Shown here: positions 5,591 to 49,114 of the stretch, piece by piece
Layout of the letters: each line of letters begins with the position of its first letter
Position numbering within the stretch: position 1 is the stretch's first letter
Assembly: GCA_029262455.1 (NCBI GenBank)
Contig: JAJCZJ010000020.1
Coordinates: 325,078 to 389,077, forward strand
DNA from: Deltaproteobacteria bacterium
GTDB taxonomy: Bacteria; Desulfobacterota; Binatia; HRBIN30; CADEER01
Length of the DNA stretch: 64,000 nucleotides
Direction of reading: 5' to 3'
The notes under the pieces: generated by a model
Database searches by the model: none
What the model was told of the DNA's origin: nothing
What the model saw: the letters and a program-made list of their open reading frames with translations, nothing else
Made by a program: the position numbers and the translations under genes

Positions 5591-5692
5591 TTCGGGCTCC
5601 GTCCACACTCCGAAGCACTGTCTTGCAGCCGTCGAGCCCATTCCGTGGCCAGCAAGTTCAGTACACATCGCGCACCTATCGGGAGGAAGACA

Positions 5693-33976: not shown

Positions 33977-33980
33977 AGCC

Positions 33981-34598
33981 GTGTTGTCAATGTTCGATAC
34001 GCCCGCACACCTCGAGCAGCAGACGCGCGAGCAACAGGCCGCAGCCCGGTACTGCGGGCTCGGCTTCAAAAAGGCCACGCTGCCCTCCGAGGTCTTGCAA
34101 CGGTTGCGCCAACACCTGGAAACGAACAGCCGCCGATTCCGCGCCGAGGAGCCCATCGACTACCTCGTCAACCCGGACCCCGGGAAGATTCCGGCCCTTT
34201 ATTTCGAGGACAAAGAATTCAACGCCACCCTAAGTCGCGAGCTACAAGGATTGCACGAAGAGTGGGCCGGAAGGAGTCTGACCGAGTCCGCCTGCTACGG
34301 CATCCGCGTCTATCAACGCGGCAGCTTTCTCTACAACCACGTCGACCACACCGACACACACATCATCAGCTCTTCGATCTGCGTCGACCACCGCCTCGAC
34401 AAGCCGTGGCCCCTCTACGTCGAGGATATCGACGGCAATCCCCACCAGATCGATCTCGACCCTGGCGACATACTGTTCTACGAGGGAGCCCGCCTGCGAC
34501 ACGGCCGTGCCTATCCACTCGAGGGTGACTACTACGCATCCATTTTCGTCCACTATCGACCCGCAAATCTCTGGTCTTCGCGGCTCGTTGGCACCTAG
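33981..34598 (+). CDS. 2OG-Fe(II) oxygenase, prolyl 4-hydroxylase-like
   Basis: YGIRVYQRGSFLYNHVDHTD (HxD) and distal GDILFYEGARLRHGRAYPLEGDYYASIFVHYRP. Lies 4 nt after the upstream stop. Confidence 0.7.
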   Translation: MLSMFDTPAHLEQQTREQQAAARYCGLGFKKATLPSEVLQRLRQHLETNSRRFRAEEPIDYLVNPDPGKIPALYFEDKEFNATLSRELQGLHEEWAGRSLTESACYGIRVYQRGSFLYNHVDHTDTHIISSSICVDHRLDKPWPLYVEDIDGNPHQIDLDPGDILFYEGARLRHGRAYPLEGDYYASIFVHYRPANLWSSRLVGT

Positions 34599-34640
34599 TC
34601 GCCGATTTCGTTAAGAACACCCGAAAACGCAGTATTACTC

Positions 34641-36644
34641 GTGAGACATCTACTCTATACAAACTACCAGTCCGGTCAGTCGGGTTTGAGCAACGGCATC
34701 ATGTCGATCGAGCTGGGCGTGGTCCTCGCGTTCCTGACGAATCGGTTTCTCCTGCTCGATGGCAACATCTCCCCGCCGGCCAATATCGTGTCGTACGGCG
34801 ATCGAGTCGACAACAGCCAGCCGAGCCGCGTCACCGACCTGATCGACCTACCGGTCGCCTGGAGTGAGCCAGGAAGCGTCGACGTGTCCAAGTTGCCGTT
34901 CCTCGAATTGAGCGACGACCATCTGGGGAGTGCCGCGTTCTATGTCCCCGGCACCGTCGACATCCGATCCGCCGACGCGGAAGCGTTCGCCAACGGCAGG
35001 ACAGTGTGGCTCAACGCTGGCGGCTCGCTCGACGAGATCCCGGTGCTGCGAGTGTCCGAGGATCACAGCAAAGACAATCTTCGATACAATCTCAACTACT
35101 ACTCGTACTTCTTCTACCTCGACGACGAAACGCGTCGCTCCGTCTACCGCATGCTCGAGCGGATGCAACCAAAGCAGGACCTAGGGGAGCTGGCGAAGCG
35201 CGTCGCCGGCGATCTCGGAGCATTCAACGCGGTGCACTTGCGACGCGGTGACTTCAAGGTGACCTATGGAGTCACCACCCTCGACCGTCAACCTTGGGAA
35301 GCAATCGAGGCGCTCGAGCATCACTTCAAACGCGACGACACTCTGGTCTTCGTGACCGACGAGCGCGACGACCCGTTCTTCGACGAGATCAAGAAGGTCT
35401 ATACGCATCACGTATTCATCGATCACCACATCCTCGACGACTACGAGAAGGACTTCGCCGCATTGCAGCACCGCGACAGCATCGCCTTGGCCTATCTTTC
35501 CCAGCTCGTGGCGGCCGAATCCGCCGACTTCATTGGCACCATGACCAGCACGTTCACCGCCATCATCCAGCGCTACCGCGGCAATCGCGGCAAGGCCGAG
35601 AGTTTCAAGTACCTTTGGAACGAGCTCCCGGACGACGGCGATCGTCTCGAACGCGGCCGTCATCCGGTTAGTGAGTGCGTCCCGATGGACCGCGGCATGA
35701 TGGTCGAAGAGTCGTCGGGTCCGTACTCATGGAATCGCTACAACAAGAGGATCGCCGCCAACTGGATGCGCGAATGGCCCGAAAGTTTTCTGACCCAAGA
35801 GAGCCTCGAAACCGGCAAATTGACGACCGGGGCCAGCCCCGTTGCCCGCCCCATCGTTCTGGTTCGTCCCGAAAGGACGAAAGTCGAGGTCGCGTTCGAC
35901 GGCTTGAGCATCATTCTAAACTCGCAAGTGCCTCGCGTTGCGACCAAGCTGAGCGAAGCCTTCGAATCACGCCAAGCTGCGAGTCCAGCGAACGTCATCG
36001 GGGAGTTCGAGGTTGCTGAAGAAGACGGCGACTTCCGTCTTCTGCAACGCGGCCAGGAAATCGCCACCGCAGCAAGCTACGAGGAGTTGGCGCGCACGTT
36101 AAAACTCCGCATGGTGCCGATCTTTGTCGGTGCGCGCCGCCGGCACGTGTGGCTGGAAGCTTTTTCCTTCCGTAGAGCAGGCCATGCGCTGGTTCTCGCC
36201 GGCGACATGGGTCCTCCATCGGACTGGCTGCCGGACGCCATGTGCTCGAACGGCTGGGAGCTGCTGTGGGACGAGATCGTCCCGATCCGCCTGGAAGACT
36301 GTACCGTCACACCGTTCGGCCGCACGACCTGGCCGAAGGGCGCAGCCCTGCGCATCGACCGTACGCCCTGTCGCGTCAGCGGCCTGATCGTCACCAGCCG
36401 ACAAGTCCAGCGCCGCGACACCTTGACCGTCTTGTCCCCAGCCACCGGGGTGGCGGAGTTGATCGGCCGCTGCGTCGACTTCCGCACCGACCGCAAGCGG
36501 GCGGTAGAACGCCTGTGCAAGCTGGTCGAGAAACGAACCGTAGGCAGACTGTCCTTCAGCCGCGCCGAGACCGCTGTCGATCTCCTCACGCGCCCCTTCC
36601 TCGACGCGGAGCGTGAGTCCGCCCACGGTACAAAGTCTGCATGA
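34641..36644 (+). CDS. O-fucosyltransferase-like (PF10250-type) GT domain fused to an HprK-related-kinase-like domain with a degenerate P-loop
   Basis: GLSNGIMSIELGVVLAFLTNRFLLL, FNAVHLRRGDF, ADFIGTMTSTFTAIIQRYRG. C-terminal half: VEVAFDGLSIILNS...HVWLEAFSFRRAGHALVLAGDMGPPSDWLPDAMCSNGWELLWDEIVPI. Confidence 0.55.
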   Translation: MRHLLYTNYQSGQSGLSNGIMSIELGVVLAFLTNRFLLLDGNISPPANIVSYGDRVDNSQPSRVTDLIDLPVAWSEPGSVDVSKLPFLELSDDHLGSAAFYVPGTVDIRSADAEAFANGRTVWLNAGGSLDEIPVLRVSEDHSKDNLRYNLNYYSYFFYLDDETRRSVYRMLERMQPKQDLGELAKRVAGDLGAFNAVHLRRGDFKVTYGVTTLDRQPWEAIEALEHHFKRDDTLVFVTDERDDPFFDEIKKVYTHHVFIDHHILDDYEKDFAALQHRDSIALAYLSQLVAAESADFIGTMTSTFTAIIQRYRGNRGKAESFKYLWNELPDDGDRLERGRHPVSECVPMDRGMMVEESSGPYSWNRYNKRIAANWMREWPESFLTQESLETGKLTTGASPVARPIVLVRPERTKVEVAFDGLSIILNSQVPRVATKLSEAFESRQAASPANVIGEFEVAEEDGDFRLLQRGQEIATAASYEELARTLKLRMVPIFVGARRRHVWLEAFSFRRAGHALVLAGDMGPPSDWLPDAMCSNGWELLWDEIVPIRLEDCTVTPFGRTTWPKGAALRIDRTPCRVSGLIVTSRQVQRRDTLTVLSPATGVAELIGRCVDFRTDRKRAVERLCKLVEKRTVGRLSFSRAETAVDLLTRPFLDAERESAHGTKSA

Positions 36645-37630
36645 CAGACCAAGCAACCGCACCGCGCCAGATCGACATCCGCATCTCCACCATCGGCGGG
36701 CACGAGTATCGGTTGAATCTCCGCGAAGACGCCGTCCATTTGCGCGACCTCTTTACTCGATTCGTCAACCGACCGGCGACTGGGGCTGTCCGAGCTCCTG
36801 AATTCATCCAACTGCCCCTCGACGGAGGCAACGCTTCCTGCACGATCGCCGTCGATCAGATTGTGTCGATCGTCACCACGCCACCAGTCGTCATCGAAGT
36901 GCAACAACCCGCCGTCGAGCCAAACGTAATTCCAGATGTGCCGGCAGTGGTCGCGCCACCCCAGATCCGGCGCGCACACTACACGGTGATCGACGACTTT
37001 CTCACCGTCGATGAGCACCGAGACATGCTGGCGTTGGCATTGAGCGAGAAGGACAGCTTCGAACCCGGTACGGTGCAGGGTGAACCGAGTCCACACCGAC
37101 GAAACAGCGTCATCATGAACTTCGCAGACTCGGCGCACGGAACACTGCTGACAAGTCGTCTGCTCGTTTGGTTTCCATTGATCGCAAAGGCGCTGAAGGA
37201 ACCACTGTTTCCGCTCAAGACGGTCGAGTCGCAACTGACCGCCGCCAACGACGGAGACTACTATAAGCCTCACCTCGATACCGACGGGAAGACCCCCGAT
37301 TTCCGGGTCATCGCGTGCGTCTACTATTTCTTCCGCGAGCCAAAAGGGTTCACGGGCGGCGACCTACGCCTCTATGATTCCATCGAAACAGGTGGCGAAA
37401 TCTGTCAGGCGGATTCCTTCCAAGACATTCGGCCGGCAAGCAATCGCTTGGTCGCATTCACCTGCGAGACCTTCCACGAGCTGCTCGCGACTCGCTGCCC
37501 GTCCAAGGATATCGAAGACAGTCGTTTTGCGGTGACCGCGTGGTTTCACCGCAGCGGCGCACCGGACCCCGACGCCAAGTTCGGTTGGGGACATTATCGT
37601 TGCGGCGAAGTTCCGGAGGCACTGCGGTGA
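36641..37630 (+). CDS. Unassigned N-terminal ~80-aa domain fused to a 2OG-Fe(II) oxygenase (PF13640-like)
   Basis: ATGA overlap with the upstream stop. YYKPHLDTDG (HxD), GGDLRLYD, NRLVAFTCETFHEL, RFAVTAWFH. Confidence 0.7.
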   Translation: MTDQATAPRQIDIRISTIGGHEYRLNLREDAVHLRDLFTRFVNRPATGAVRAPEFIQLPLDGGNASCTIAVDQIVSIVTTPPVVIEVQQPAVEPNVIPDVPAVVAPPQIRRAHYTVIDDFLTVDEHRDMLALALSEKDSFEPGTVQGEPSPHRRNSVIMNFADSAHGTLLTSRLLVWFPLIAKALKEPLFPLKTVESQLTAANDGDYYKPHLDTDGKTPDFRVIACVYYFFREPKGFTGGDLRLYDSIETGGEICQADSFQDIRPASNRLVAFTCETFHELLATRCPSKDIEDSRFAVTAWFHRSGAPDPDAKFGWGHYRCGEVPEALR

Positions 37631-37802
37631 GCAACGCGAGGGCTCGCTGCTCGAGACCACCGATCCTCGCGCTTTCGACCAAAGGTAGCGAAGGCGCGCC
37701 CCCCGCCGCACCGGGTACTGTCATCAGCAGCCGGCGAGTCAGCCACCTCGCTTTCGCAGGCTTGACCGAAGCCCCCGGGATCAGAGGCAGAGTGCGTTTG
37801 TC

Positions 37803-38930
37803 ATGATCTTCACGGTTTTCGTCGCACCGGTCGAACCAACGCAACAGTGGCGTGCCGATCTCCTCGAATACTCATGGCGACGCATCAAGCAGAGCGGCGA
37901 ACTGATCCGGCTGGCGCCAACCGCCCCCGGACGCGCACCAGGTAGCAGAGGGAGAGTCGGGAGAACCGTCAAAACGTTCGACTGGAACCCCCACCCGTAC
38001 ACCCAGGACGTGTACGCCGGCTATCAGACAACCGCCGGCGTACTCGAGTGGTTGTTCAACGAGCCGGCCGAAGGAACAGTCCTTTTGCTGGATTCGAGCT
38101 GCATCCTACGCCACCCGGTTACAGCAGAGGTCGAACCAGGCCACGTGCGCGGGTCGTCGTGGCCGGAGATCCCACTTGGCACGGACGGCCCATTCGGCCT
38201 GCATGATGATCTGAAGTTTCTCGAATCCTATTGCGTCAACCGCAAGCTCCCCCTCGCTCCCGTGCGGATGCCGATTTTGATCCACACGGCGGACCTGCGA
38301 AAAATCGCGGCGCGCTGGCTCGAGCTTACGGCGTTGATTCGATCCCATGCCGTAGGCGTTCACGGAAAATACCTTCATGCAGATCGCGTCGCCTACACCG
38401 TCGCCGCCGCCGAATACCGCATCCTCCACACCCTTGACGACCTCGGCACTACGACGTCGGATACCGGCAAAGACGTTCCGATCGTCGACTACAGCACACC
38501 GATCAAGTCCAAACAGGGAGAGATCGTCTGGGACCGAAAGGTCTATCGACCATGGGAGGCAGTCTACACCGAAAATGCGCGCGCAGGCGCAGGCAGAGAC
38601 GTACTCGGGATCCTGAACGAGATGGTGACGCGCCGCGAATCGGGAGCCGAGCTTGCGGCAACACGTCCACAGCGGTGCTACGGGGTGCGGGAAGCACGAA
38701 TTCTCGACGACATTCATCTCGAAGTACCTGGGTGTGCCGACTTGATGTCGCTGAATCAATCCGCGGCTGCCATCTGGGAGCTGTGCAACGGCGAGAACAC
38801 ACTCGCCGAGATCGTCAGCGAGCTCGAGAGACAATTCGACGCGTCACGCGAAACCCTCATGACATCCGTCGAATCGACGGCGAGGGATTTGGAAAGCTCA
38901 GGTGCCATCGAGCTGGAGGAGCTGTTCTGA
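37803..38930 (+). CDS. GT95/GT96-like glycosyltransferase fused to a C-terminal PqqD-like domain
   Basis: IFTVFVAPVEPTQQWRADLLEYSWRRIKQSGELIRL, AGVLEWLFNEPAEGTVLLLDSSCILRHPV, ILIHTADLRKIAARWLELT, ADRVAYTVAAAEYRILH. C-terminus: LMSLNQSAAAIWELCNGENTLAEIVSELERQFD. Confidence 0.6.
   Translation: MIFTVFVAPVEPTQQWRADLLEYSWRRIKQSGELIRLAPTAPGRAPGSRGRVGRTVKTFDWNPHPYTQDVYAGYQTTAGVLEWLFNEPAEGTVLLLDSSCILRHPVTAEVEPGHVRGSSWPEIPLGTDGPFGLHDDLKFLESYCVNRKLPLAPVRMPILIHTADLRKIAARWLELTALIRSHAVGVHGKYLHADRVAYTVAAAEYRILHTLDDLGTTTSDTGKDVPIVDYSTPIKSKQGEIVWDRKVYRPWEAVYTENARAGAGRDVLGILNEMVTRRESGAELAATRPQRCYGVREARILDDIHLEVPGCADLMSLNQSAAAIWELCNGENTLAEIVSELERQFDASRETLMTSVESTARDLESSGAIELEELF
38679..38927 (+). other. PqqD-like domain, copy 2, C-terminal
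   Basis: Last ~82 aa of ORF 37803..38930. Confidence 0.6.
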
Positions 38931-40156
38931 TGGCATCCAAAGCAAAACCAAGCGCCAAAAAGTCCGTGCCGACCACAAAAACAAAGCACGCAGCAAAACG
39001 TGCCAAAGCCTCGGCCAAGAAAACAGCCAAAGCGCCGCCCGGAAAAGCCACGACAGCACGGGCGAAGAAGACCACCAAGACTCCGGCCTCCAAGAGCCCC
39101 AAAACCCGGACCCAAAGGACCCGGGCCCAAAAGCCCCGGGCCCGCAAAGCCGCGCTCAAAGTATCGCAAACGGTGTCGCCCAAAGGATCGCAAACGACTT
39201 CGAAGACGGAGCGAACGACCCCATCGCCTCGCGCAAAGTCGCGGCAGGCCACAAAACAACCCCAGATCTTCGTGTCGATCGCCTCCTACCGCGACCAGTT
39301 TCTTCACTTCACCATCGAGTCGGTGCTCAAACAGGCGACGTACCCAGAACGGTTGACCTTCGGCCTCTGCTGGCAAGCCGACGACACCGAGCAACTCGAT
39401 CAATACCTGCACGATCCGCGTTTCCGCATTCGCAAGTACCCGTACTACGCGAGCCTCGGCTACGGTTGGGCAAGAGCCGAGATCCAAAAACTATACGCCG
39501 GCGAAGAGTACCATCTACTGATCGATTCTCACACGTATCTCGCCAAGGGGTGGGACGAGAATCTGATCGCGCAACTCGAGAGCAAGCCGGGCGAGAAGCC
39601 GCTACTGACGACCAGCTCACCCCCTTTCACCTTCGACAATGACGGCAACGTCGTAATCCCGTGGCAAGGGACCGAACACGACGGCGTGCCGCTGATGAAG
39701 TGCGCACGAATCCAACCGGCAGGGTGGGTCGACATCCAGATGTCCAATGAGCGCAAGTCCACCAAACATCAAACCACCGGATTGGTGTGCTGTAACTTTG
39801 TCTTCACGCACGGGGCTTGGATCCGCGAAGTGCCCGAGGATCCGGCGATGATCAACGCCGGCCACGAGTCAGCCCTTTCGGTTCGTACCTTCACCCACGG
39901 ATACGACATCTACCTGCCCGACGAAATTCAAATCTGGCACCTCGACTACAACAACTACCCGAACGGTGAGCGCAACAAGGTATGGGAAGCAAAGTCCGAC
40001 AGTTGGCAGTCTGAGGGCACCGAGATCATGCTGCGGCGGCTGCAAGCGCTGTTCTACAACCGCGGCGACCGCGCCTCGCTCGGCCGCTACGGACTCGGTC
40101 GATCCCGCACCGTAGCCGACTGGGCGGAGATCACCGGACTCGACCTCAGTGACTGA
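38930..40156 (+). CDS. Lys/Ala/Thr/Pro-rich basic N-terminal extension (~111 aa) fused to a GT60 Gnt1-like (PF11397) glycosyltransferase
   Basis: Inner part of ORF 38552..40156. ATGA overlap with the upstream stop, GGAGGAG SD at 38915-38921. MASKAKPSAKKSVPTTKTKHAAKRAKASAKK..., then QIFVSIASYRDQFL, LLIDSHTY. Confidence 0.65.
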   Translation: MASKAKPSAKKSVPTTKTKHAAKRAKASAKKTAKAPPGKATTARAKKTTKTPASKSPKTRTQRTRAQKPRARKAALKVSQTVSPKGSQTTSKTERTTPSPRAKSRQATKQPQIFVSIASYRDQFLHFTIESVLKQATYPERLTFGLCWQADDTEQLDQYLHDPRFRIRKYPYYASLGYGWARAEIQKLYAGEEYHLLIDSHTYLAKGWDENLIAQLESKPGEKPLLTTSSPPFTFDNDGNVVIPWQGTEHDGVPLMKCARIQPAGWVDIQMSNERKSTKHQTTGLVCCNFVFTHGAWIREVPEDPAMINAGHESALSVRTFTHGYDIYLPDEIQIWHLDYNNYPNGERNKVWEAKSDSWQSEGTEIMLRRLQALFYNRGDRASLGRYGLGRSRTVADWAEITGLDLSD

Positions 40157-41942
40157 CGTCGACTCCGCACTACTGCCAATTCCCCAACCCGAGTGGCGTG
40201 CTTCTTTATCCGGCGACGGCGCGGCAGTTGATGTCCTGATTTTAAGCAAGGACCGCGCCTGCCAACTCGACGGACTGCTGCGCACGATGCGCGCGTTCCT
40301 GACCATCCCACACCGGAAATACGTACTGTACAAGACGTCTAATTTGGCGTTCGAGCGCGGCTACGACATGCTCCGCCGGTGGAATCCCGAGGTCGAGTTC
40401 ATCGACGAGGCGCAAACGTTTCGACAATGCTACCTCGACCTCGTGGCAAGGATCGCCGCCGGGCCTGGTCGCTACTGGATGCCGGTGATGGACGACATGA
40501 TCTTCACTCGCACGTTCACCGCACAGCCACTCATCGACCTCCTCGACACAGACGAGGACGTGCTGGCGATCTCTCTGCGCCTCGGCGAGAACATTACCTA
40601 TTGCTACACCCGAAACGCTCCAACCACACCTCCGGACTTCAGCAACGGACACCGTTGGGAATGGAGAACAGCCAGCCCAGGCTACTGGAACTATCCAATG
40701 TCCGTCGACGCCAACATCTACCGCACGGCGGAAATGGCCGAATACATCCCGACCCTCCAATTCGGCAAGGCTGAAGTCATCGAGGCACGCATGGCCGGGG
40801 TGCCCTTGAACCGCCCCCATATGCTGTGTGAACCGACCCCCAGCGTACTCAATCTCGCGATCAACCGCGTTCAACACACCTTCAAGAATCGGCACGGCAC
40901 AATCACGCCAGAAGCCCTGAACGGCGCTTTCCTCGCGGGTTTCGCGATGGATGTGCGCCCGTTGCTGGGTCGAACCTTCAACGCCTGTCACGTCGAGGTC
41001 GAGCTGTCCTTGGTCCCCGATGCGCGCGAGCGCCCCGGCGCAACGCCCCTCTCTTCGACCGGCTGGAAACCACAGCGAAACGGCGCCGTCGTCGTGACCG
41101 AGAGCCATGCTGTCGTGACGCTCAAGAGGAACGGAACGAAGCTCAAACTCAATCAGAGCGCCGAAGAGATCTGGAAACTGTGCGACGGAACACGAACGCC
41201 CGAGGACATCCAAAACGAGCTCGCGCAACATTTTGACGCAACCCCGCGCCAGCTTCACAGCGGCGTACGAAGCGCCCTGGCGAATTTCATCAATCACGGC
41301 CTTCTCCGTCAGGAACGCCCGGAAGGCGCATACCGCCGCATCGACCTGCGCCAGATTCCCTGCTTCGTGATCAATTGCGAAGCCGATGCTGAGAAGGACA
41401 CGTTGATGAAGCGTCAGCTCGCTGAGCTCGGGATACCGTACGAACGTGTACCCGGGATCGCCGCAAGCCCGGATTGGGTCGGCGTCGCGCTGTCGCACCT
41501 CAAAGTGCTTCGCCTGACCCGCTCGACGACACCCTTCCTGGTGCTCGAGGACGATTGCTTGTTCAACGACCGCTTCCAACCAGTGTGGCAAGTACCGGTC
41601 GAGGCCGACGCCCTGTATCTCGGCGTTTCCGAGTTCGGCCTCGAGACCCCCGGTCACTTCAGCTGGGGCCGCCGGCGCAAGAACCAATGGAGACCCTACG
41701 ACCGGTCCTTCCTCCGCATTTTCAACATGCTCGCACGCCATGCGGTCGTGTACCTTTCCAACGACTACTGCGAGCAAGTCATCCAATCGCAAATCGAAGC
41801 ACTGACGAATCGAAGTTTGCCGTACCCTGGGGACATCGGCTGCGCGATGCTGCAAGCATCGCACGTCGTCCTGACCCCGAACGAACCGATCTGCCGGCAA
41901 ACCGGTCGTGACTCGACCGTGCGTCCGTTGCCGGAGCTCTGA
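40149..41942 (+). CDS. Three-domain protein: GT-A-like domain, central PqqD-like domain, GT25-like domain
   Basis: VDVLILSKDRACQLDGLLRTM; central KLKLNQSAEEIWKLCDGTRTPEDIQNELAQHFD; C-terminal IPCFVINCEADAEKDTLMKRQLAELGIPYERVPGI...FLVLEDDC. Confidence 0.6.
   Translation: MTDVDSALLPIPQPEWRASLSGDGAAVDVLILSKDRACQLDGLLRTMRAFLTIPHRKYVLYKTSNLAFERGYDMLRRWNPEVEFIDEAQTFRQCYLDLVARIAAGPGRYWMPVMDDMIFTRTFTAQPLIDLLDTDEDVLAISLRLGENITYCYTRNAPTTPPDFSNGHRWEWRTASPGYWNYPMSVDANIYRTAEMAEYIPTLQFGKAEVIEARMAGVPLNRPHMLCEPTPSVLNLAINRVQHTFKNRHGTITPEALNGAFLAGFAMDVRPLLGRTFNACHVEVELSLVPDARERPGATPLSSTGWKPQRNGAVVVTESHAVVTLKRNGTKLKLNQSAEEIWKLCDGTRTPEDIQNELAQHFDATPRQLHSGVRSALANFINHGLLRQERPEGAYRRIDLRQIPCFVINCEADAEKDTLMKRQLAELGIPYERVPGIAASPDWVGVALSHLKVLRLTRSTTPFLVLEDDCLFNDRFQPVWQVPVEADALYLGVSEFGLETPGHFSWGRRRKNQWRPYDRSFLRIFNMLARHAVVYLSNDYCEQVIQSQIEALTNRSLPYPGDIGCAMLQASHVVLTPNEPICRQTGRDSTVRPLPEL
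41079..41315 (+). other. PqqD-like domain, copy 3, internal
   Basis: aa 311-389 of ORF 40149..41942. Confidence 0.6.
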
Positions 41943-41977
41943 TCGAACGAGCCGTTCCTCCAAGCCGGATCCATACA

Positions 41978-44900
41978 GTGAAAAAGGGCACAATCCACGA
42001 TCTCTTCTCCCGCACCGCTTGCGTCGTGTCCGACAGGCACCGATTCATCTATTTGACGGCGCAAAACGCCACGTCTTCCCTGAAGGCCGAGCTGTCGAAC
42101 GAGCACTGCGGCGGCGTTGTCCTCGCCCGCGCACAGGTGGCTGATAAACTCTGGAACCAATACTTTACGTTCGCCTTCCTGCGCGACCCGCTGACGCGCT
42201 TTCTCTCCGCCTATCAGGAAGTGTCTCTGCACATGGAGCGTGACAAACTCGAACCGCGCCCTTTCGGCCGGATGCCCGACGGCCTCGATCGCTTTCAGGC
42301 ATTTCTCGCGGACGTCGAGCAGAACGGTCCGTGGAACGAGCACATTGCACTCCAGCTAGCCTTCGTCGAGCGCCGAAGAATCGACTTTTGGGGGCTCGTC
42401 GAAACGCTGCAAGACGACTTCCAACAAATCTACACCCGGCTGGGATTGGGGACCTGTCCCGTTCTGCCAAAACGCCGCTCTCGCAGCGGCCGTGAGGAAA
42501 AGGACGGCATCTCGCGCTTCGCCTTCCATCCGGAGGACCTCGATGCGACGACAATTGAGCGCATCTACGACCTCTACCGTGAGGACGTCTTGCTGATTCG
42601 AGCGGTTCGCCCCGACGCACCTGAAATGCAGCCGCACTCAACCCGTGCCGCACCGCCCCCCGGAATGGTGCAGGTGGCGATCGCCCTGGCCAACGGCGGC
42701 GAATACTCCCTCGAACTTCCGCCCGGCCAACCAGAGCTGGGCGCTCTGCAAGCTGTGGTATCACCACAACAATCCGATGGACGTTTTCTCGGCCCGCAAG
42801 TTCTGCAGGTTCCACTGCGTGGTGGCAATTCCGCGCTGACGTTTTCCACGCAGCACCTCGTTCGTCTCGAGCTACGCCCCCCCGACGCCCGAGAACTGCG
42901 CCGAATCGAGGCGCCGGCCACCGGCACGGGCAACTCCGGAGTGAATCTAATAAACGTCGGGAACAAGCGGCCGCCAACCGAGGACCCATCGAGCAATATC
43001 GACGAGGCGCATCTCGGTGGCTACATTCGTGCGGCCAATACACCGATTCTCCACAGCGCCGCAGGCCCACACGGGGACCGGGGAACCTGGAATCCGCTGC
43101 TGTGGCGTTGGGCAATCGAAGATCTCGACGTGCGATCAGTGATCGATATCGGATGCGGCGAGGGACACGCCGCCGGATTTTTCTCCGACGGCGGGTGTGA
43201 AGTGCTCGCGCTCGATGGCAGCCTTCAAGCGCGCTATTCCAGCGTTGTTCCAGATCGCCACGTCGTACACGACTTCGTCGAGGGACCTTTCGTCCCAGAG
43301 AAAAGCTTCGACATGGCCTGGACCTGCGAGTTCGTCGAACACGTCGAGGCGCGTTTTCTCCACAATTTCCTGGCTACGATCGCATCGAGCCGCAAGTACG
43401 TGATGATGACGTTCGCCAGCCCGACACAAACAGGCTGGCATCACGTCAATTGCCAAGAACAGGGTTACTGGGTCGATCAGTTGGGACGCCTCGGGTTTCG
43501 CCTGGACGACGATCTAACCGAGAGAGGCCGAGCCTTGGCTCACTCTCATTTTCGCGAACGTGGCCTGGTCTTCGTCCGGCACCATCGAAAAGGCGAGTCA
43601 TCGAAGTCCACAGAACCGTCGCTGCGCGCGACTGCCGAGAGTCACTGTCTCGACCCGCTGCCGGTCCAATCCATGCAGGTCGCACAGCGCGAGAGCGATG
43701 CCTTCTACCTGTTTGTCGACATCTTCGTGCATCCGACCGCACCGAGAATCGTGGCGATCTCACCACCCTATGGCGAAGACTGGAATCCTAACGTTGTCGG
43801 CATCGACTACGATGCCGTCGACCTTGTATTCGGTGACATACGCGTCCGCGGCCGCTGCCTGCGGCACCGTCTCGACTCCTGGGAGCCTTGCATGCTTCTC
43901 GAGTTCGAGGACGAAGACCTAACAGAGCGCATTCGGGCCAACGACGAGATCAACGTCACGATCGAGGCCGGCTCGCATTCGTCGTCCTTCGTCCTGACGA
44001 CCCGCCCAGCGCCAGCCTACGATGTCGCAATGAGCCTCGTCGTACGCAACGAAAACCGCTGGATCCGCACGTTTCTCGACTACTACCTCGACTGCGTCAA
44101 AGCCGACCACGTCTTCATCTACGACAACGGAACGTCGGAACAAGACCAGCTGCTTTCCATTCTTCACCCGTACCGAGAGCGCGGGCAAGTGACGTACATC
44201 CCGTGGGATTTTCGCTGGCGCAACCGCATCGACCGCAAGATGATCGGCCAACCGACACAGGAGGCTCACTCCCTTGCAAGATTCGCAAACACCGGGTGGA
44301 TCGGCTTTCTCGACATCGACGAGTTCCTGCGCTTGCCGCACAGCACCCTGCCACAATTTCTCGCTCGCTTCGCGTCCGCGGAGGTCGACGGACTCTCGTT
44401 CGGTATCCGGTGGTTTTCTTACGAGGGCCCGCTTGCACTCGATGAGATTACGAGTGTGCCACTGCAATTCCTCCACTCGCGCCGCAATGAGCTCGGCCGA
44501 AAACGGCAGAAGTTCTTCGTCAAAGGCGGCGGCTCGAAGTTTCTTCGCTTGCATTGGCTCGAAGACGGAGGTCGCGAACTGCCCATCGACGACACCGAGA
44601 TCTACTTTCACCACTACGATCAACGTCCCGGCCGTTTCGAAGAAGGAAAGCAAATCGGAGGAGCGCGCGACGAATACATGCTGCGCTTCGCCGACCAGCT
44701 CTCGCGCCCCGAGCGGCACAGAGCCCCTCTAACCGAGAGAGGATGGATCACCCACATCAACTCTTCGATCGAACGCGCCGAACGCGACACCTCCAAACTC
44801 ACCCCGGAAGTCCTCGCCGTCGACGGCATGTGCGGGCGCTACACCCGTCACTTCTACAACAACCTCTGCAGCTTCGGAGGATGCCGCTACCTCGAGATCG

Positions 44901-45385
44901 GCAGCTATCACGGGGCCAGCACCTGCGCGGCAATCTTCGGCAACGACGTATCCGCCGTGTGCATCGACAATTGGACACAGTTTCACGGCAAGCGAAGCCG
45001 CTTCGAGGATGCCCTACGACGCTTCCGAGGAGATCGCTCGGTCCGAGTCATCGAGCAAAACTGCTTCGAAGTAGACGCCTCAAGCCTCGGCCCATTCGAC
45101 ATCTATCTCTACGATGGCGACCACAGCCAGCAGAACCAGTACCGAGCCTTGCAGCACTTCGTTCAGACGCTGGCCAAGCTCGCCGTAGTCGTCATCGACG
45201 ACTGGAATCGTCGGCATATCCGTCGGGGGACACAGGACGCGATTCGGGACCTCGAACTCGATGTAATCTTCGACCGAGAGATCCTACTGCCAACCGACCA
45301 GACGGCGGATGAAAACCGTGACGCTGGAGCGCGAACTTGGTGGAACGGACTCTACATCATGCTCGTTCGCAGTAGAACGCAGTAG
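41978..45385 (+). CDS. 1135-aa five-module enzyme: sulfotransferase, shared ~75-aa domain, class I SAM-MTase, GT92/Glyco_tranf_2_4-like, second SAM-MTase (Methyltransf_24-like)
   Basis: FTFAFLRDPLTRFLSAY; MVQVAIALANGGEYSLELPP...LQVPLRGGNSALTF; VIDIGCGEGHAAGF; SLVVRNENRWIRTFLDYYL...FIYDNGTS...FLDIDEFL; YLEIGSYHGAST...IYLYDGDHS...VVIDDWN. GTG start has a weak SD. Confidence 0.65.
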   Translation: MKKGTIHDLFSRTACVVSDRHRFIYLTAQNATSSLKAELSNEHCGGVVLARAQVADKLWNQYFTFAFLRDPLTRFLSAYQEVSLHMERDKLEPRPFGRMPDGLDRFQAFLADVEQNGPWNEHIALQLAFVERRRIDFWGLVETLQDDFQQIYTRLGLGTCPVLPKRRSRSGREEKDGISRFAFHPEDLDATTIERIYDLYREDVLLIRAVRPDAPEMQPHSTRAAPPPGMVQVAIALANGGEYSLELPPGQPELGALQAVVSPQQSDGRFLGPQVLQVPLRGGNSALTFSTQHLVRLELRPPDARELRRIEAPATGTGNSGVNLINVGNKRPPTEDPSSNIDEAHLGGYIRAANTPILHSAAGPHGDRGTWNPLLWRWAIEDLDVRSVIDIGCGEGHAAGFFSDGGCEVLALDGSLQARYSSVVPDRHVVHDFVEGPFVPEKSFDMAWTCEFVEHVEARFLHNFLATIASSRKYVMMTFASPTQTGWHHVNCQEQGYWVDQLGRLGFRLDDDLTERGRALAHSHFRERGLVFVRHHRKGESSKSTEPSLRATAESHCLDPLPVQSMQVAQRESDAFYLFVDIFVHPTAPRIVAISPPYGEDWNPNVVGIDYDAVDLVFGDIRVRGRCLRHRLDSWEPCMLLEFEDEDLTERIRANDEINVTIEAGSHSSSFVLTTRPAPAYDVAMSLVVRNENRWIRTFLDYYLDCVKADHVFIYDNGTSEQDQLLSILHPYRERGQVTYIPWDFRWRNRIDRKMIGQPTQEAHSLARFANTGWIGFLDIDEFLRLPHSTLPQFLARFASAEVDGLSFGIRWFSYEGPLALDEITSVPLQFLHSRRNELGRKRQKFFVKGGGSKFLRLHWLEDGGRELPIDDTEIYFHHYDQRPGRFEEGKQIGGARDEYMLRFADQLSRPERHRAPLTERGWITHINSSIERAERDTSKLTPEVLAVDGMCGRYTRHFYNNLCSFGGCRYLEIGSYHGASTCAAIFGNDVSAVCIDNWTQFHGKRSRFEDALRRFRGDRSVRVIEQNCFEVDASSLGPFDIYLYDGDHSQQNQYRALQHFVQTLAKLAVVVIDDWNRRHIRRGTQDAIRDLELDVIFDREILLPTDQTADENRDAGARTWWNGLYIMLVRSRTQ

Positions 45386-45412
45386 AAACGCCGCAAATAT
45401 CGAAACCGGGAA

Positions 45413-45892
45413 TTACTCCTCGCCCTTGGTTTCTTTTCCCACGGGAGCCGGTCGGCCCTCGTCGTCATCCGAAGCAATGAGCTTTTTAGCACCGAAGCCA
45501 AAGAGCGCCGCTGCGGCCACAGCCGCGGCGCCGCCTGAAACCACAGGCGCATCGACTGCTGCCTGAAAGGCGGTCGGAACCGCCGTACTGGGAAGGCCCG
45601 GATCGAGGACCGTCGGGACCTGCGTCGGTGCGGCAGTAGGATTGAGGCAAAGTGACGGCGAATTGGTACATTGCGTCGTCCCAGCTTCGACAGGCGCGAC
45701 GAATCCAAGATCAGACGAGACCGGTACCGATAAGATCACCGGCGTTACCCAGGCAATCTTGAGCGCCGAGCGCCTTGAAATATCGTCGGAAAAAGTCGGC
45801 CGCGCCGCCTTCCCGTCCGTCACCAGCTCGCCCCGCAGCCGCTCGATCTCCTCGAGAAGCTCCTTTTTCGTCTTCGTTCCGTCACCCGCCAT
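45413..45892 (-). CDS. Pro/Thr-rich small protein, paralog of 31963..32469, with a C-terminal hydrophobic anchor and acidic tail; candidate substrate/precursor 2
   Basis: ORF 45413..45997 trimmed to ATG 45892, which has a GGAGAGGG SD upstream. MAGDGTKTKKELLEEIERLRGEL...DISRRSALKIAWVTPVILSVPV, P/T/S/A-rich middle, GGAAAVAAAALFGFGAKKLIASDDDEG. Confidence 0.65.
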   Translation of the reverse strand: MAGDGTKTKKELLEEIERLRGELVTDGKAARPTFSDDISRRSALKIAWVTPVILSVPVSSDLGFVAPVEAGTTQCTNSPSLCLNPTAAPTQVPTVLDPGLPSTAVPTAFQAAVDAPVVSGGAAAVAAAALFGFGAKKLIASDDDEGRPAPVGKETKGEE

Positions 45893-46048
45893 TATAGACC
45901 CTCTCCAATGCTGCCGCTGCCATAGCAAGAATCCGACCCAAATCCCAGGCCTGCGACATCGATTTCCTGGATTCGCGGTGAGACACCCCCTGCGCACTCG
46001 TAGCAGCGGCTCGGCAGCCTATCCCGATCAAGTGGGAGAATGGGCGTG

Positions 46049-46744
46049 TCATCCCACCCCGCAGACCTCCCGACCCGTGGCTTCACGATAGTAGGACACA
46101 TCCTCGGCGCAAATGCGCAAAGCCAGTTCTCGCGTCTCCCCATCATAGAAAAGCTCCGGAACCGGCATCCCGTGCCGGCGAAGCCAGCCCGGGGAACGAT
46201 CTGTCGCGCGCTCTCGAATCGTCACGTCCTGCGGCGAAGGATTCTCGTGCAGGACCGGCGCGGAAACCGAAACTCTCTCGTTTAAGCTCGCCAGCCCCCG
46301 CGAGAGATCTTCCACCGCAACGACTTCGTCGAAGTCTATCTGATGCGTGTTTCGGACCTGCGGCACCAAATGGTGCTGGGGTTCGATCCCGCGGGTCTGA
46401 ACATGCTGCAAGGTGTAGAGGAACTTGCGAAAGCTCTTGTCCCGCAGCGAGAGCTTCCGGTCATCGTCGGCAAAGCACCACAACGTTTCATCGCGCACGA
46501 CCCACAAGGTGTAGAACCCGACGAGTCGGCGAAGCGGATCGCGCACAAAGAAGACCTTCCAATAGTCACGACAGCGGTCGATGTCGCCGTGCCAAATCAG
46601 GAAAGCGTCAAGGTCTTCGACCGGTTGCTTCGTCTTCTCCTCAATCGCTGCCTTGCACCACGATCGGATGCTGTTCGAACCACACTTGGGACTATAGACG
46701 GCAAGTACTTCGAGTGGATCCGCGGCTAGGAAGAAGTGGGCCAT
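46049..46744 (-). CDS. Sulfotransferase (Sulfotransfer_2-like)
   Basis: MAHFFLAADPLEVLAVYSPKCGSNSIRSW (5'-PSB-like), KVFFVRDPLRRLVGFY (3'-PB-like). The frame stays open upstream through the heptamer repeat to GTG 46900, so an N-terminal HESPVTS-repeat extension cannot be excluded. Confidence 0.65.
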   Translation of the reverse strand: MAHFFLAADPLEVLAVYSPKCGSNSIRSWCKAAIEEKTKQPVEDLDAFLIWHGDIDRCRDYWKVFFVRDPLRRLVGFYTLWVVRDETLWCFADDDRKLSLRDKSFRKFLYTLQHVQTRGIEPQHHLVPQVRNTHQIDFDEVVAVEDLSRGLASLNERVSVSAPVLHENPSPQDVTIRERATDRSPGWLRRHGMPVPELFYDGETRELALRICAEDVSYYREATGREVCGVG

Positions 46745-46759
46745 GGGGATTCTATGTGT

Positions 46760-46878
46760 GTGATTGGTGACTGGTGATTCGTGACTGGTGACTGGTGATT
46801 CGTGACTGGTGACTGGTGATTCGTGACTGGTGACTGGTGATTCGTGACTGGTGACTGGTGACTGGTGACTGGTGATTG
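46760..46878. repeat. 17 tandem heptamers GTGAYTS, with a 21-bp super-repeat GTGACTGGTGACTGGTGATTC
   Basis: Counted by hand from the sequence: 119 bp = 17 x 7, lying between the GT60-like stop (46893) and the sulfotransferase ATG (46744). Confidence 0.9.
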
Positions 46879-46892
46879 GTTGGGCAAAAGTT

Positions 46893-47900
46893 CTACACAC
46901 CGGCGCCGGCCTGGTACTCTTCGAAAGTGACGCAGCTCTCCCAGTCGGACGGCGACCGGATTGTCACTGGGTCGGGGTTCGCGCCACTAAACGCATCCGG
47001 ATGCGCGCGTTTGGCTCGGAAGTCAAAGCCCGAAAAAATCTCGTAGTCCCGCAAGGTCCGCACCCGACCGAAACCGTACGGTCCGGGCAGCGGTGATTCA
47101 TAGCTCGAGAGCAGCTGTTCCAAACGGGCAAACGCCTCGCGGTTGCGGCGCTCGACGACGTCTTCCCCCTGCTCCCAATGGCGCCGCGGCGGCCCGTCGT
47201 TGTGCTGCATGTGCCATGCCACGACTTCCGTTGGAAGAAAGAAGTCGTACCCCCAGGTGTACGAACGAATGGTCACATTCAGCTCTTCGCCCCAATAGTA
47301 TTGTCCGGGATCCTGCGGCACCTCGACATTCCAGATGCCGCGCGAGAACGCGAAGTTGCCGTTGACAAACCGTGTACGCCCCGGCTTCTTGACGTTGGGG
47401 GCTCCAAAGTCGAACCACGGCGCCCAATGGTCCGACGCGCTCCAGCCGCTCACCTTGGTCGTCGGCACACCCATTTCAGTACGACGCTGCGGCACACCAT
47501 CCTCGTCGTACCAGAATAGGGGAGCATTCATGCTGAGAACGGGTTTCTCACTGGGGAGAGCCTCCAGCATCTCGATCAGCCGCGCGTCCCAGTCGGGCTC
47601 GAGCTTCATATGGGAATCGATCTGCAGAGTGTAGGGTTCACCTCGCCACAGAGACTGCGCAATATTACGCGCCCAGGGGCCGCCCTGGCTTGCCGCAATC
47701 GTCGTATCCACAAACCGAAACCGCGGATCTCGGCGAAAATCCTCCAACGGCACCGGCGCTTTTGGGTCACGCTGCCAGCAAATTCCGAAACGCAGCGAAT
47801 CTGGAGCACTTGCCGTTTCGATCGCGTCACGCAAGGTGCGCGGCAACTCGGGGTCCGTGTACGACGCGATCGCGACGAAGATCTGAGGGTGGGAAGCCAC
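46893..47900 (-). CDS. GT60 Gnt1-like (PF11397) glycosyltransferase, paralog of 38930..40156 without the basic extension
   Basis: MASHPQIFVAIASYTDPEL, LQIDSHMKL, and the C-terminal GFGRVRTLRDYEIFSGFD parallels GLGRSRTVADWAEITGLD. Confidence 0.65.
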   Translation of the reverse strand: MASHPQIFVAIASYTDPELPRTLRDAIETASAPDSLRFGICWQRDPKAPVPLEDFRRDPRFRFVDTTIAASQGGPWARNIAQSLWRGEPYTLQIDSHMKLEPDWDARLIEMLEALPSEKPVLSMNAPLFWYDEDGVPQRRTEMGVPTTKVSGWSASDHWAPWFDFGAPNVKKPGRTRFVNGNFAFSRGIWNVEVPQDPGQYYWGEELNVTIRSYTWGYDFFLPTEVVAWHMQHNDGPPRRHWEQGEDVVERRNREAFARLEQLLSSYESPLPGPYGFGRVRTLRDYEIFSGFDFRAKRAHPDAFSGANPDPVTIRSPSDWESCVTFEEYQAGAGV

Positions 47901-48115
47901 GATTCATACTCTTGCCGAAGCCAAGGTCGCACCGCAAGTGACAGAGACACCCGTCTATAGCCGCTCCACCGCTTGAATCTTGGTCGAGGACTCGGGATTC
48001 CAAACAACCTCCTCATGGCTCCAAGATCGGGATCTTCGCAGACAATCGACCCGCAAGGTTGCCCGAGCCACTGCGAGCGCGGCCGCAAACCCACCCGATC
48101 CACTCGACCCCCGGA

Positions 48116-49114
48116 TCAGACCTTGTGGGCGAGCCCCTTTTCCCGCGCCGTGTACTGATCGAAGATCCAGGCGTAGGTTTTCTCGATACCGTCGCGCAAT
48201 GAAGTAGACGGAGCCCAACCGAGCTTCTCAATGATCATCGTGTTGTCGCTGCTCCGCCCGTCGACACCCTTCGGAGCATCCAGTTTATAGGTTCGCTCGA
48301 GCCGAATTCCGGCAATCTCTTCGACGACATCGACCAGATCATTGATGGACACTGTCTCACTTGAGCCGAGATTGATCGGGTCCGAGACACTGCTCTCCAT
48401 CAGCCGACGAATTCCCTCGATGCAGTCATCGATGTACGTAAACGAGCGACCCTGGTTTCCATCGCCCCAGATTTCAATGCGATGATCGCCGCGGACTTTT
48501 GCTTCGATCACCTTTCGACAGATCGCCGCGGGTGCCTTCTCGCGACCACCGTCCCAGGTCCCATGAGGCCCATACACATTGTGGAAGCGAGCCACTCGCG
48601 TCCGCATCCCAAAGTCCTCCATGAAATGGCGGCACATACGCTCGGAGAACAGCTTCTCCCACCCGTACCCATCTTCCGGCATCGCCGGGTACACGTCGTC
48701 CTCTTTCAAGGGAGTGACATCATAGCCACGTTGCTTGTCCGCCCTGTATACGCATGCCGACGACGCGTAGAAAAAGCTCTCGGTGCCGCACACATTCGCA
48801 GCTTCCAACAGATGGGTATTGATCAAGACGTTGAGCATGCACAGAGCCTTGTTGCTCTCGATGAAGCCCATGCCGCCCATATCACAGGCCATCTGGTACA
48901 CGACTCCGACCCCCTCGCAGACATCCATGCACGGACTCCGCAACCGCAGATCCAGCTGCCGATTGTCGACGTCGTCGAAGCACTGGTACCACTCTTCGAT
49001 CGGTTTGAGATCGACCGCGCGTAGGTTGGGCTCACCACGCTGGCGCAAGTCGGCAACAATCTGCCCCCCGATAAACCCGCCCGCGCCTGTGACTAGAACA
49101 GTAGAAGCAACCAT
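48116..49114 (-). CDS. GDP-mannose 3,5-epimerase-like extended SDR
   Basis: VTGAGGFIGG, ACDMGGMGFI, FFYASSACVY, RFHNVYGPHGTWDGGREKAPAAICRK, EIWGDGNQGRSFTYIDDC, GVDGRSSDNTMIIEKLGWAP. Collinear with plant GME as I recall it. Confidence 0.8.
   Translation of the reverse strand: MVASTVLVTGAGGFIGGQIVADLRQRGEPNLRAVDLKPIEEWYQCFDDVDNRQLDLRLRSPCMDVCEGVGVVYQMACDMGGMGFIESNKALCMLNVLINTHLLEAANVCGTESFFYASSACVYRADKQRGYDVTPLKEDDVYPAMPEDGYGWEKLFSERMCRHFMEDFGMRTRVARFHNVYGPHGTWDGGREKAPAAICRKVIEAKVRGDHRIEIWGDGNQGRSFTYIDDCIEGIRRLMESSVSDPINLGSSETVSINDLVDVVEEIAGIRLERTYKLDAPKGVDGRSSDNTMIIEKLGWAPSTSLRDGIEKTYAWIFDQYTAREKGLAHKV

Follow-up and report, generated by a model that had tools for sequence, protein, structure and literature searches.

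Cyanobacterial STRR heptamers are long repeats of the heptanucleotide class, and the array described here, 17 head-to-tail heptamers at positions 46760–46878 of a stretch of DNA from Deltaproteobacteria bacterium (assembly GCA_029262455.1, contig JAJCZJ010000020.1, forward-strand positions 325,078 to 389,077), is compared with this class and its relatives. To our knowledge, the array unit, CAGTCAC/GAATCAC, is not among the named STRR units (STRR1–3). The analysis covered this 64-kb stretch, referred to as the window; the array lies in it between a GlcNAc glycosyltransferase gene and a sulfotransferase gene, both read from the minus strand, which is the gene or coding strand, whereas the heptamer notation GTGAYTS refers to the plus strand. 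As argued below, the array is probably a non-coding heptanucleotide simple sequence repeat (SSR), a 'long SSR', which expanded in an operon junction and converted a coupled junction into an open leader. In the account of Mrazek (2007) as summarized in PMC4679880, heptanucleotides are the commonest class among prokaryotic long SSRs with units of 5–11 nt and possibly arise by polymerase slippage. The array resembles these long SSRs in its perfect or nearly perfect head-to-tail 7-nt units, its apparently non-coding location, its length above chance, its sporadic occurrence and its presumed slippage origin, but differs from genomes rich in long SSRs, which contain many arrays, in being alone in 64 kb and in its unusual position in an operon junction.

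Intergenic TAACTGA arrays have been described upstream of start codons that lack a Shine–Dalgarno sequence in marine Beggiatoaceae, some Cyanobacteria and Bacteroidetes (MacGregor, 2015; PMC4679880). The same paper reports long arrays in Aequorivita and Gramella, the close relatives of which share the neighbouring genes but have shorter, repeat-free intergenic regions, as well as insertions and deletions in 7-nt steps in heptamer arrays between close Cyanothece strains; a role of TAACTGA in translation is suspected there but unproven. The present locus shares with these arrays the placement of heptamers a few to tens of nucleotides upstream of a start without a Shine–Dalgarno sequence and the existence of relatives that are repeat-free in the same neighbourhood. 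However, the TAACTGA unit carries stop codons on the sense strand, whereas the present array has a stop-free, complement-type unit on that strand; by eye, GTGACTG and TAACTGA differ at 2/7 positions in the best register (GTGACTG against ATAACTG) and lie on opposite strands relative to the downstream gene. In addition, TAACTGA forms genome-wide sets, with 2–6 copies at 169 loci, whereas the present locus is one long array.

The G-rich GGGNATC heptamers of Xanthomonas and Nostoc lie mostly between co-oriented open reading frames (ORFs), most of them being transcribed, and in the 50 bp ahead of an ORF the strand that carries the G-rich sequence tends to be the non-coding one (Rehm et al., 2015; PMC4692102). 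The G-rich strand of the present array is likewise the non-coding strand upstream of an ORF, but the GGGNATC repeats form G-quadruplexes from G3–4 tracts, with four units preferred, whereas the present array has GG only and 17 units. In H. influenzae, the transcribed 7-bp repeat (ATCTTTC)n in the 5′ untranslated region of hmw1A/hmw2A exerts graded control of expression (PMC12721329, PMC8262952), by means of a long hairpin that forms between about 10 repeats and a G-rich region and is cut by RNase III (PMC12721329). The present array is also a heptanucleotide SSR upstream of a start codon, is presumably transcribed, and graded control is the most that its anatomy supports. The hmw repeats, however, form a long hairpin in a 5′ untranslated region behind a dedicated promoter, whereas the RNA of the present array is predicted to be unstructured and is intercistronic.

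The array, its flanking genes and the unique parts of the spacer between them are the following.

46760..46878, minus strand: 17-unit heptanucleotide tandem array (sequence reading, Tandem Repeats Finder, fold and composition computations)
46893..47900, minus strand: PF11397 GlcNAc glycosyltransferase of 335 aa, the upstream gene of the pair (Pfam E 1e-43)
46049..46744, minus strand: sulfotransferase of 231 aa, PF03567 Sulfotransfer_2 (Pfam E 5e-8)
46879..46892, minus strand: unique 14-nt 5′ part of the spacer, AACTTTTGCCCAAC (sequence reading)
46745..46759, minus strand: 15-nt 3′ part of the spacer, ACACATAGAATCCCC (sequence reading)

Direct reading of the sequence confirmed what the original prediction had stated of the array itself. 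There are exactly 17 heptamers in register, and the claimed 21-bp super-period was recovered by Tandem Repeats Finder across 46760–46880 (period 21 × 5.8 copies, 96% matches, score 214), together with the basic period over the same interval (period 7 × 17.3 copies, score 172). The flanking genes, described there as GT60-like and sulfotransferase, were identified as such by Pfam (PF11397 and PF03567). On the plus strand the array begins and ends with GTGATTG, with GTGACTG and GTGATTC units between; on the sense strand it reads CAATCAC (CAGTCAC)4 [GAATCAC (CAGTCAC)2]x3 GAATCAC CAGTCAC CAATCAC, or A BBBB C BB C BB C BB C B A when CAATCAC, CAGTCAC and GAATCAC are denoted A, B and C, respectively. 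Expansion steps of 7 nt and of 21 nt are both visible in this unit order. A pattern of two consecutive units matched 17 times in the window against 0.47 expected, a number attained by 0/100 shuffles; 16 of these matches overlap within the array and the remaining one, with one mismatch, is at 22136. Both Tandem Repeats Finder and the pattern scan found no second array of this motif in the window, in which single GTGACTG copies outside the array are not enriched (4, against about 8 expected for the whole window). The array combines a length above chance with head-to-tail units without spacers, which are two marks of a prokaryotic long SSR (units of 1–11 nt).

Focusing on the junction between the two genes, the array of 119 nt together with the 14 unique nucleotides on its 5′ side and the 15 nt on its 3′ side gives an intercistronic spacer of 148 nt. 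In four syntenic lineages recovered from metagenome contigs (L002/L003, L004, L006 and L009–L011), the distance from the transferase stop to the sulfotransferase ATG is 7, 8, 24 and 46 nt, respectively, and no repeat is present at this junction. The transferases of these relatives are 75–78% identical to that of the window, with C-termini aligned within a few residues, and the transferase stop of the window (TAG 46895–46893) is at the orthologous position in the alignment. Among 11 metagenome loci with homologues, nine of them new, no similar heptamer run was found upstream of the conserved start. The comparison of repeat number among related genomes, proposed in the original prediction as a check, set 17 units against four syntenic lineages and nine further loci without any repeat. 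Since the syntenic relatives are repeat-free, the array appears to be a recent, lineage-specific insertion into a formerly tight operon junction, and the ancestral junction was probably translationally coupled.

The sequence between the array and the start codon may indicate how the expansion began. The 3′ part of the spacer contains GAATCCC (46752–46746), an in-phase degenerate unit matching GAATCAC at 6/7 positions, and resembles the 7–8-nt spacers of the relatives (ATTCCAC and TTCCCCGA); the 7 nt before the ATG (AATCCCC, with TAG ahead) look like the stop-plus-spacer of the relatives, TGA ATTCCAC ATG and TGA TTCCCCGA ATG. Because of the in-phase copy and of this likeness, the array may have been seeded from the spacer itself. 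The segment that is extra relative to the syntenic loci is 141 nt long and has the pentamer TAGAA at both ends (46895–46891 and 46754–46750), a pair that might stem from duplication of a target site or from a stop-plus-spacer that was duplicated and then seeded the repeat. As to an origin from a mobile element, no further copy of the array flank was found above chance within the window.

Two alternative starts of the sulfotransferase have to be compared, one on either side of the array.

46742..46744, minus strand: sulfotransferase ATG start, MAHFF... (conserved family N-terminus)
46898..46900, minus strand: GTG opening a 283-aa long reading, MCRTFAQPITSHQ... (start of the NCBI-sourced protein P0001)

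The reading frames are as the original prediction had described them: on the minus strand, all three frames run through the array without a stop, the frame of the sulfotransferase can be followed back to GTG 46900–46898, this GTG shares 8 nt with the upstream gene, which ends at TAG 46895–46893, and the 20 nt before ATG 46744 (CAATCACACACATAGAATCCCC) contain no GGAG, GAGG or AGGA and thus no obvious Shine–Dalgarno sequence. The long frame reads ...TSHQSPVTSHESPVTS... before MAHFF at ATG 46744. In a search of 5.8 billion proteins, 24 sulfotransferase homologues were found and 17 were aligned, and in 15 of the 17 the first residues are MAH(Y/F)F or closely similar to it, which corresponds to ATG 46744; M53 and A54, in the numbering of the long reading, are nearly invariant. 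The N-termini of P0011, P0017 and P0018 extend upstream of the MAH methionine with unrelated sequences, and the repeat-encoded peptide occurs in none of the aligned homologues, the sole 283-aa form being the database protein P0001 from the source genome itself. At 11 further loci the DNA of the gene begins with ATGGC.CACT.CTTC or a sequence close to it, GTG being the start codon in two of them. The G+C content at third codon positions (GC3) is 0.44 in the 52-codon extension, compared with 0.71 in the sulfotransferase and 0.72 in the transferase, and Pfam detected no domain in the extension. From the conserved MAH start, the lack of a homologous extension and the contrast in GC3, ATG 46744 is most probably the ancestral sulfotransferase start. 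The GTG 46900 start of P0001 is then probably a mis-call, by which a microsatellite free of stops was taken for coding sequence and 52 extra codons were included at the beginning of the 283-aa model.

These results bear on the two readings offered in the original prediction, a spacer or a translated Ser/Pro/Thr-rich extension. The conserved start and the repeat-free syntenic relatives speak for the intergenic location, and the extension is not supported, as no homologue has it, its GC3 is 0.44 against 0.71–0.72 and the gaps of the relatives measure 7–46 nt. The accompanying proposal of a switch operated by a change of one unit does not fit the anatomy of the locus. The unit is 7 nt long, not a multiple of three, so one unit does shift the frame, as phase variation demands, and the GTG 46900 frame is in phase only at n = 17 ± 3k units. 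However, ATG 46744 stays intact and available whatever the unit number, the other two frames stopping 7 nt before and 16 nt after it, so a one-unit change cannot inactivate the enzyme and, there being no OFF state, the classic frame-shift phase switch does not apply. In a translational contingency locus the repeat lies between the start that is used and the functional domain, and loss of frame abolishes the product; here the family methionine at 46744 is downstream of the array and the product would survive loss of frame.

We therefore favour an expansion of the array without coding function, in which replication slippage in 7-nt and 21-nt steps would have built it in the short GlcNAc-transferase to sulfotransferase spacer in this lineage only. 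The array would be transcribed as a C/A-rich, G-poor and almost structure-free RNA in an orientation that is tolerated beside a start codon; transcription is suggested by operon synteny and by the lack of a terminator or promoter in the spacer, the array ending 15 nt upstream of the ATG. A consensus scan found nothing promoter-like or terminator-like in the spacer, and Rfam gave no match in the array, its three matches elsewhere in the region being at chance level (E above 4). The sense RNA 46930–46700 has a predicted minimum free energy of −24.8 kcal/mol, compared with −36.4 ± 3.6 kcal/mol for shuffled sequences (z = +3.17); none of 200 shuffles folds less stably, the centroid has hardly any pairs, and a hairpin of the hmw type is accordingly missing from the predicted fold. 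The mean predicted unpaired probability of the array in its context is 0.63. As single-stranded DNA, the two strands of the array have minimum free energies of 0 and −3.7 kcal/mol, in a fold model that scores hairpins only and not quadruplexes. On the basis of the RNA and single-stranded DNA folds, a hairpin, a cruciform and an hmw-like structure were ruled out, and so was a G-quadruplex, as there are no G3 tracts, of which a quadruplex of the GGGNATC type takes four or more, and the G-rich strand (GGTGACT/GGTGATT) has GG only.

The composition of the spacer is equally skewed. Its sense strand contains 58 C, 50 A, 23 T and 17 G, with one start-type codon, TTG 46887–46885 in the 5′ part, 5 nt past the upstream stop, and one stop codon, TAG 46754–46752, whereas the antisense strand contains 23 start-type and 17 stop codons. 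Stop codons are fewer than in composition-matched shuffles (1 observed against 4.4, P = 0.04). An apparent depletion of start codons (1 observed against 1.6) is explained by composition. Tolerance of the array would be due to a transcribed strand that lacks structure and contains hardly any start or stop codons. The 148-nt open leader would replace an ancestral termination–reinitiation junction of 7–46 nt, and the sulfotransferase would still be made from the ancestral ATG 46744 by initiation independent of a Shine–Dalgarno sequence at an accessible start region. For the start region (−20 to +15), the predicted unpaired probability is 0.76 in the native sequence, 0.49 when the array is deleted in silico and 0.48 when the whole insert is deleted, with values of 0.34–0.58 in four relatives.

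C-rich, G-poor and unstructured RNA has the textbook features of a Rho-loading site. With ratios of 3.88 and 3.67, against a 99.9th percentile of 3.0, two 78-nt windows on the sense strand of the array have the highest C/G ratio on either strand of the 64 kb, the 148-nt spacer contains 36 YC dimers, and the leader, C-rich, poor in G, predicted to be without structure and presumably untranslated, is as long as a rut site requires (about 78 nt or more). The naked C-rich stretch could therefore permit Rho loading, and changes in unit number would tune the sulfotransferase:glycosyltransferase ratio without an OFF switch. Since the start codon is independent of the array, the unit number could tune output but could not switch the enzyme off, and any effect of the array on expression would be graded at most.

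A motif scan for three GTGAYTS units, with one genome per species, gave at least 120 loci with three or more units, against about 17 expected by chance from a uniform-base estimate. The matches listed come from Cyanobacteria, Xanthomonadales and other Proteobacteria, Bacteroidota, Planctomycetota, Acidobacteriota, Verrucomicrobiota and others, and most arrays among them have 3–4 units. The longest among them is an array of 19 GTGATTG units in Sphaerospermopsis kisseleviana (L071 44–176), followed by 17 perfect CAGTCAC units in a Pedobacter metagenome-assembled genome (MAG; L103 357–475), after which a terminator-like GC hairpin is found; both are downstream of gene ends and not upstream of starts. 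Several arrays of the CA(G/A)TCAC sense lie a few nucleotides before an ATG, for example 6, 9 and 3 nt upstream in a Chlorobium MAG, in Dolichospermum and in a betaproteobacterial MAG, respectively. In a crude ORF-based survey of the matches listed, the CA(G/A)TCAC sense prevailed by 42:13 within 50 nt of a gene start (p = 1e-4), although in 16/42 of the sense-orientation cases the downstream frame is open for at least 30 codons upstream of the array, which may then be internal to the gene; next to gene stops no clear orientation bias was seen among the matches listed (17 against 24). Arrays of 3–5 units were also found in frame within real genes (L044 3831–3858, L085 2804–2831, L109 1619–1639, L023 1161–1181 and L083 933–967), encoding DnaE, PurL, a GltD-like oxidoreductase, a hybrid histidine kinase and TamB with Pfam domains on both sides, where they encode linker insertions of the type ...SPITNHQSPITNH... 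between or within Pfam domains; the Pfam flanks confirm a real gene for one of the 16 open-frame cases and for four other arrays. As the motif occurs both in leaders and in protein linkers, its stop-free orientation seems to be tolerated in both.

Inverted pairs of arrays of this motif were observed separately in L090, L045, L056, L059 and L088, mostly of the Xanthomonadales type together with a betaproteobacterial and a Saprospiraceae MAG. In L090 (2496–2597), six GTGATT[CG] units are followed, after about 30 nt, by four CAATCAC units. Such a pair could form a long hairpin or be the mark of a small mobile element; nothing comparable was found in the 64-kb window.

Several points weigh against a non-coding expansion of this kind. 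A strict orientation count among the matches listed, from which arrays that may be coding were left out, gave 26:13 beside gene starts (p = 0.053), which is marginal, and the preference for the sense orientation is to be regarded as a trend only. Composition-matched shuffled arrays give a start accessibility of 0.65 ± 0.085, and 7/100 reach the native value, so that the gain in accessibility is mostly an effect of composition. From GTG 46900 the long reading runs uninterrupted into the enzyme, and the 21-nt super-period keeps this frame; the linker arrays of other bacteria are translated, so some translation through the present array may take place as well. An open leader and a Rho-loading site predict opposite effects on output. 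Co-transcription, the initiation site that is used and the mutability of the array are all matters that we infer, and coverage of the genome is the 64 kb of the window.

Among the alternatives, the one that survives best, although we consider it unlikely, is that the array is a selected hypermutable element in an untranslated leader, the unit number of which would grade sulfotransferase expression in the manner of hmw1A/hmw2A and would let the population vary its surface-glycan sulfation. Seventeen heptamer units are long for a bacterial SSR, and the array lies directly upstream of a glycan- or protein-modifying enzyme in a glycosylation cluster, a type of gene that is under contingency control in pathogens. 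The 7-nt and 21-nt expansion steps of the unit order, the 7-nt insertions and deletions in the arrays of close Cyanothece strains (PMC4679880) and the inverse proportionality of hmw expression to repeat number (PMC12721329) are in line with such a role. However, the long hairpin between repeat and G-rich region on which the hmw mechanism depends is absent from the predicted folds, the array is a singleton in 64 kb and the host is an uncultured environmental bacterium. The closest relatives of the host's acetolactate synthase are 82% identical to it, and named matches at 66–70% identity are spread over Acidobacteria, Planctomycetota, Deltaproteobacteria, Nitrospirae and Bacteroidia, so that this enzyme points to no single phylum. 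Nor was a closely related strain found in which unit number could be compared: the 90% protein cluster of the sulfotransferase has one member, neither the protein collection nor the metagenome contigs yielded a near-identical strain, and a metagenome scan for the junction of array and ATG gave no match. A graded role of this kind is compatible with the favoured non-coding expansion and not exclusive of it.

The number of 17 units comes from one assembly. An independent Logan contig (L001, from run SRR15505514) matches the transferase gene of the window at 100% identity and bears out the left junction together with the first four units, L001 3859–3900 corresponding to window 46892–46851, before it ends within the array. 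Exact-sequence searches with the sulfotransferase (231-aa, 283-aa and P0001 forms) matched no contig and so gave no second assembly of the right junction. The repeat thus breaks k-mer assemblies, and the unit number of any short-read assembly has to be taken with caution.

Somewhat less probable again is a translated extension, in which translation would start at GTG 46900 through coupling by the 8-nt overlap and produce a 283-aa enzyme with a 52-residue (T-S-H-Q/E-S-P-V)n tail, so that a one-unit break of frame would constitute translational phase variation. The Ser/Thr/Pro-rich tail might serve as a glycosylation substrate, and repeat peptides such as SPVTSHESPVTSH would be expected. An open frame in phase with the enzyme, the use of GTG 46900 by the NCBI-sourced P0001, a 21-nt super-period that preserves the frame and the translation of short arrays of the same heptamer as inter-domain linkers in other bacteria all favour it. 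Nevertheless, the downstream methionine is the start in 15/17 homologues, none of which has such a tail, and the relatives, with gaps of 7–46 nt, have no room for one; the GC3 of 0.44 departs from that of the genes (0.71–0.72). The extension has no Pfam domain and, by eye, no hydrophobic signal-like stretch (MCRTFAQPI...), an in-frame relation is expected by chance in 1 in 3 cases, and with ATG 46744 usable in all frames a change of frame would leave the enzyme on.

It is more doubtful still that the array is a selected hypermutable intercistronic element of a free-living environmental bacterium, a C-rich and structure-free stretch whose unit number sets the amount of sulfotransferase per glycosyltransferase, either through Rho loading and ribosome access or by switching among the three frames that end at the sulfotransferase start. 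In a more extreme version of this proposal, the Ser/Pro/Thr-rich peptide would be made and would act as an acceptor for the neighbouring GlcNAc transferase.

The way in which the three frames end suggests a further alternative. The one from GTG 46900 continues into the enzyme, that of TTG 46887 stops 16 nt past the sulfotransferase ATG, and the third is closed by TAG 46754–46752, 7 nt before the ATG, so a ribosome reading through the array would end beside ATG 46744 at any unit number. The second of these frames contains a mechanical ORF through the array, which is a possible relay upstream ORF.

46726..46887, minus strand: 53-codon second-frame ORF, from TTG 46887 to TAG 46728–46726

Ribosomes would then reinitiate at TTG 46887 or GTG 46900, translate through the array and arrive at the sulfotransferase start for any number of units, which would preserve coupling over 148 nt and shield the C-rich RNA from Rho. 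All three frames indeed end at or within 16 nt of ATG 46744, start-type codons lie 5 nt past the upstream stop and overlapping it, and stop codons are depleted in the spacer (1 against 4.4, P = 0.04). The absence of stops, however, follows automatically from the unit sequence, start codons are depleted only as composition predicts (1 against 1.6), there is no Shine–Dalgarno sequence, and the array occurs in no other lineage and hence offers no conservation to judge by, which makes such a ribosome conduit very unlikely.

Even less can be said for an array of binding sites at which a regulator would recognize the heptamer sequence in RNA or DNA, a role put forward for the TAACTGA repeats of marine Beggiatoaceae. 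The motif does recur at regular spacing, with GAATCAC every 21 bp or two helical turns, its arrays are found a short way ahead of start codons in several phyla, and the idea has been published for another heptamer (PMC4679880). On the other side, there is a single array in the 64 kb, the isolated GTGACTG copies outside it (4) are not enriched relative to the number expected for the whole window (about 8), there are no palindromes, the higher-order periods differ elsewhere (14/28 nt in L049), and the sporadic occurrence across phyla favours independent slippage over a shared regulator; we regard this possibility as remote. Finally, a short-read assembly that created or mis-sized the repeat, as might be suspected from the halt of L001 after four units and from an array size (119 nt) near the short-read length, is hardly credible, since the left junction and initial units are exactly reproduced in L001, the variant units follow an ordered pattern inside the array, the unique flanks correctly join two syntenic genes, and a repeat missing from the reads would not be created by assembly.

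Both flanking genes belong to a large eukaryote-like, glycosylation-type gene cluster (window 32612–49114), which includes three PqqD-domain proteins, two PF11397 GlcNAc transferases, a 2OG-Fe(II) oxygenase, a second sulfotransferase and an NAD epimerase, as well as an O-FucT-like protein below the Pfam cut-off and a 1135-aa fusion of Sulfotransfer_2, methyltransferase, GT92 and methyltransferase domains. The cluster is syntenic in the metagenome contigs L002–L011, where GT61, GT10 and FUT8-like genes accompany it. The pairing of an oxygenase with a GT60-type transferase in the cluster recalls hydroxyproline glycosylation pathways. Within the cluster, ORF 38552–40156, in which the second PF11397 domain begins at residue 284, shares about 380 nt with the PqqD-domain ORF before it (37803–38930), and the true start of the former is probably ATG 38930 or later. 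The same ORF contains one of the other higher-scoring tandem repeats of the window, 39096–39143 (15-nt period), which encodes a Lys/Arg/Thr-rich stretch; the other, 7224–7304 (12/24-nt period), encodes a Thr/Pro/Ala-rich linker (...TPTPTSTPTATPTATPTATATPTAT...) in ORF 5645–7879, and both are in-frame coding low complexity.

In conclusion, the expansion of a heptamer SSR in a tight operon junction can be seen here in a clean natural case, for which four repeat-free syntenic relatives are available. The public 283-aa model P0001 is probably overextended by a translated microsatellite, the homologues indicating an enzyme of 231 aa, and the motif survey adds a small general observation on tolerance, in that the same stop-free orientation is found upstream of starts and as in-frame linkers. 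If the array is length-variable and affects output, contingency-type regulation would be extended to an environmental bacterium that is uncultured and to an intercistronic site of action, in place of a promoter or coding one. If the array is indeed a selected hypermutable element, a microsatellite inside an operon would generate population-level variation in eukaryote-like glycan sulfation.

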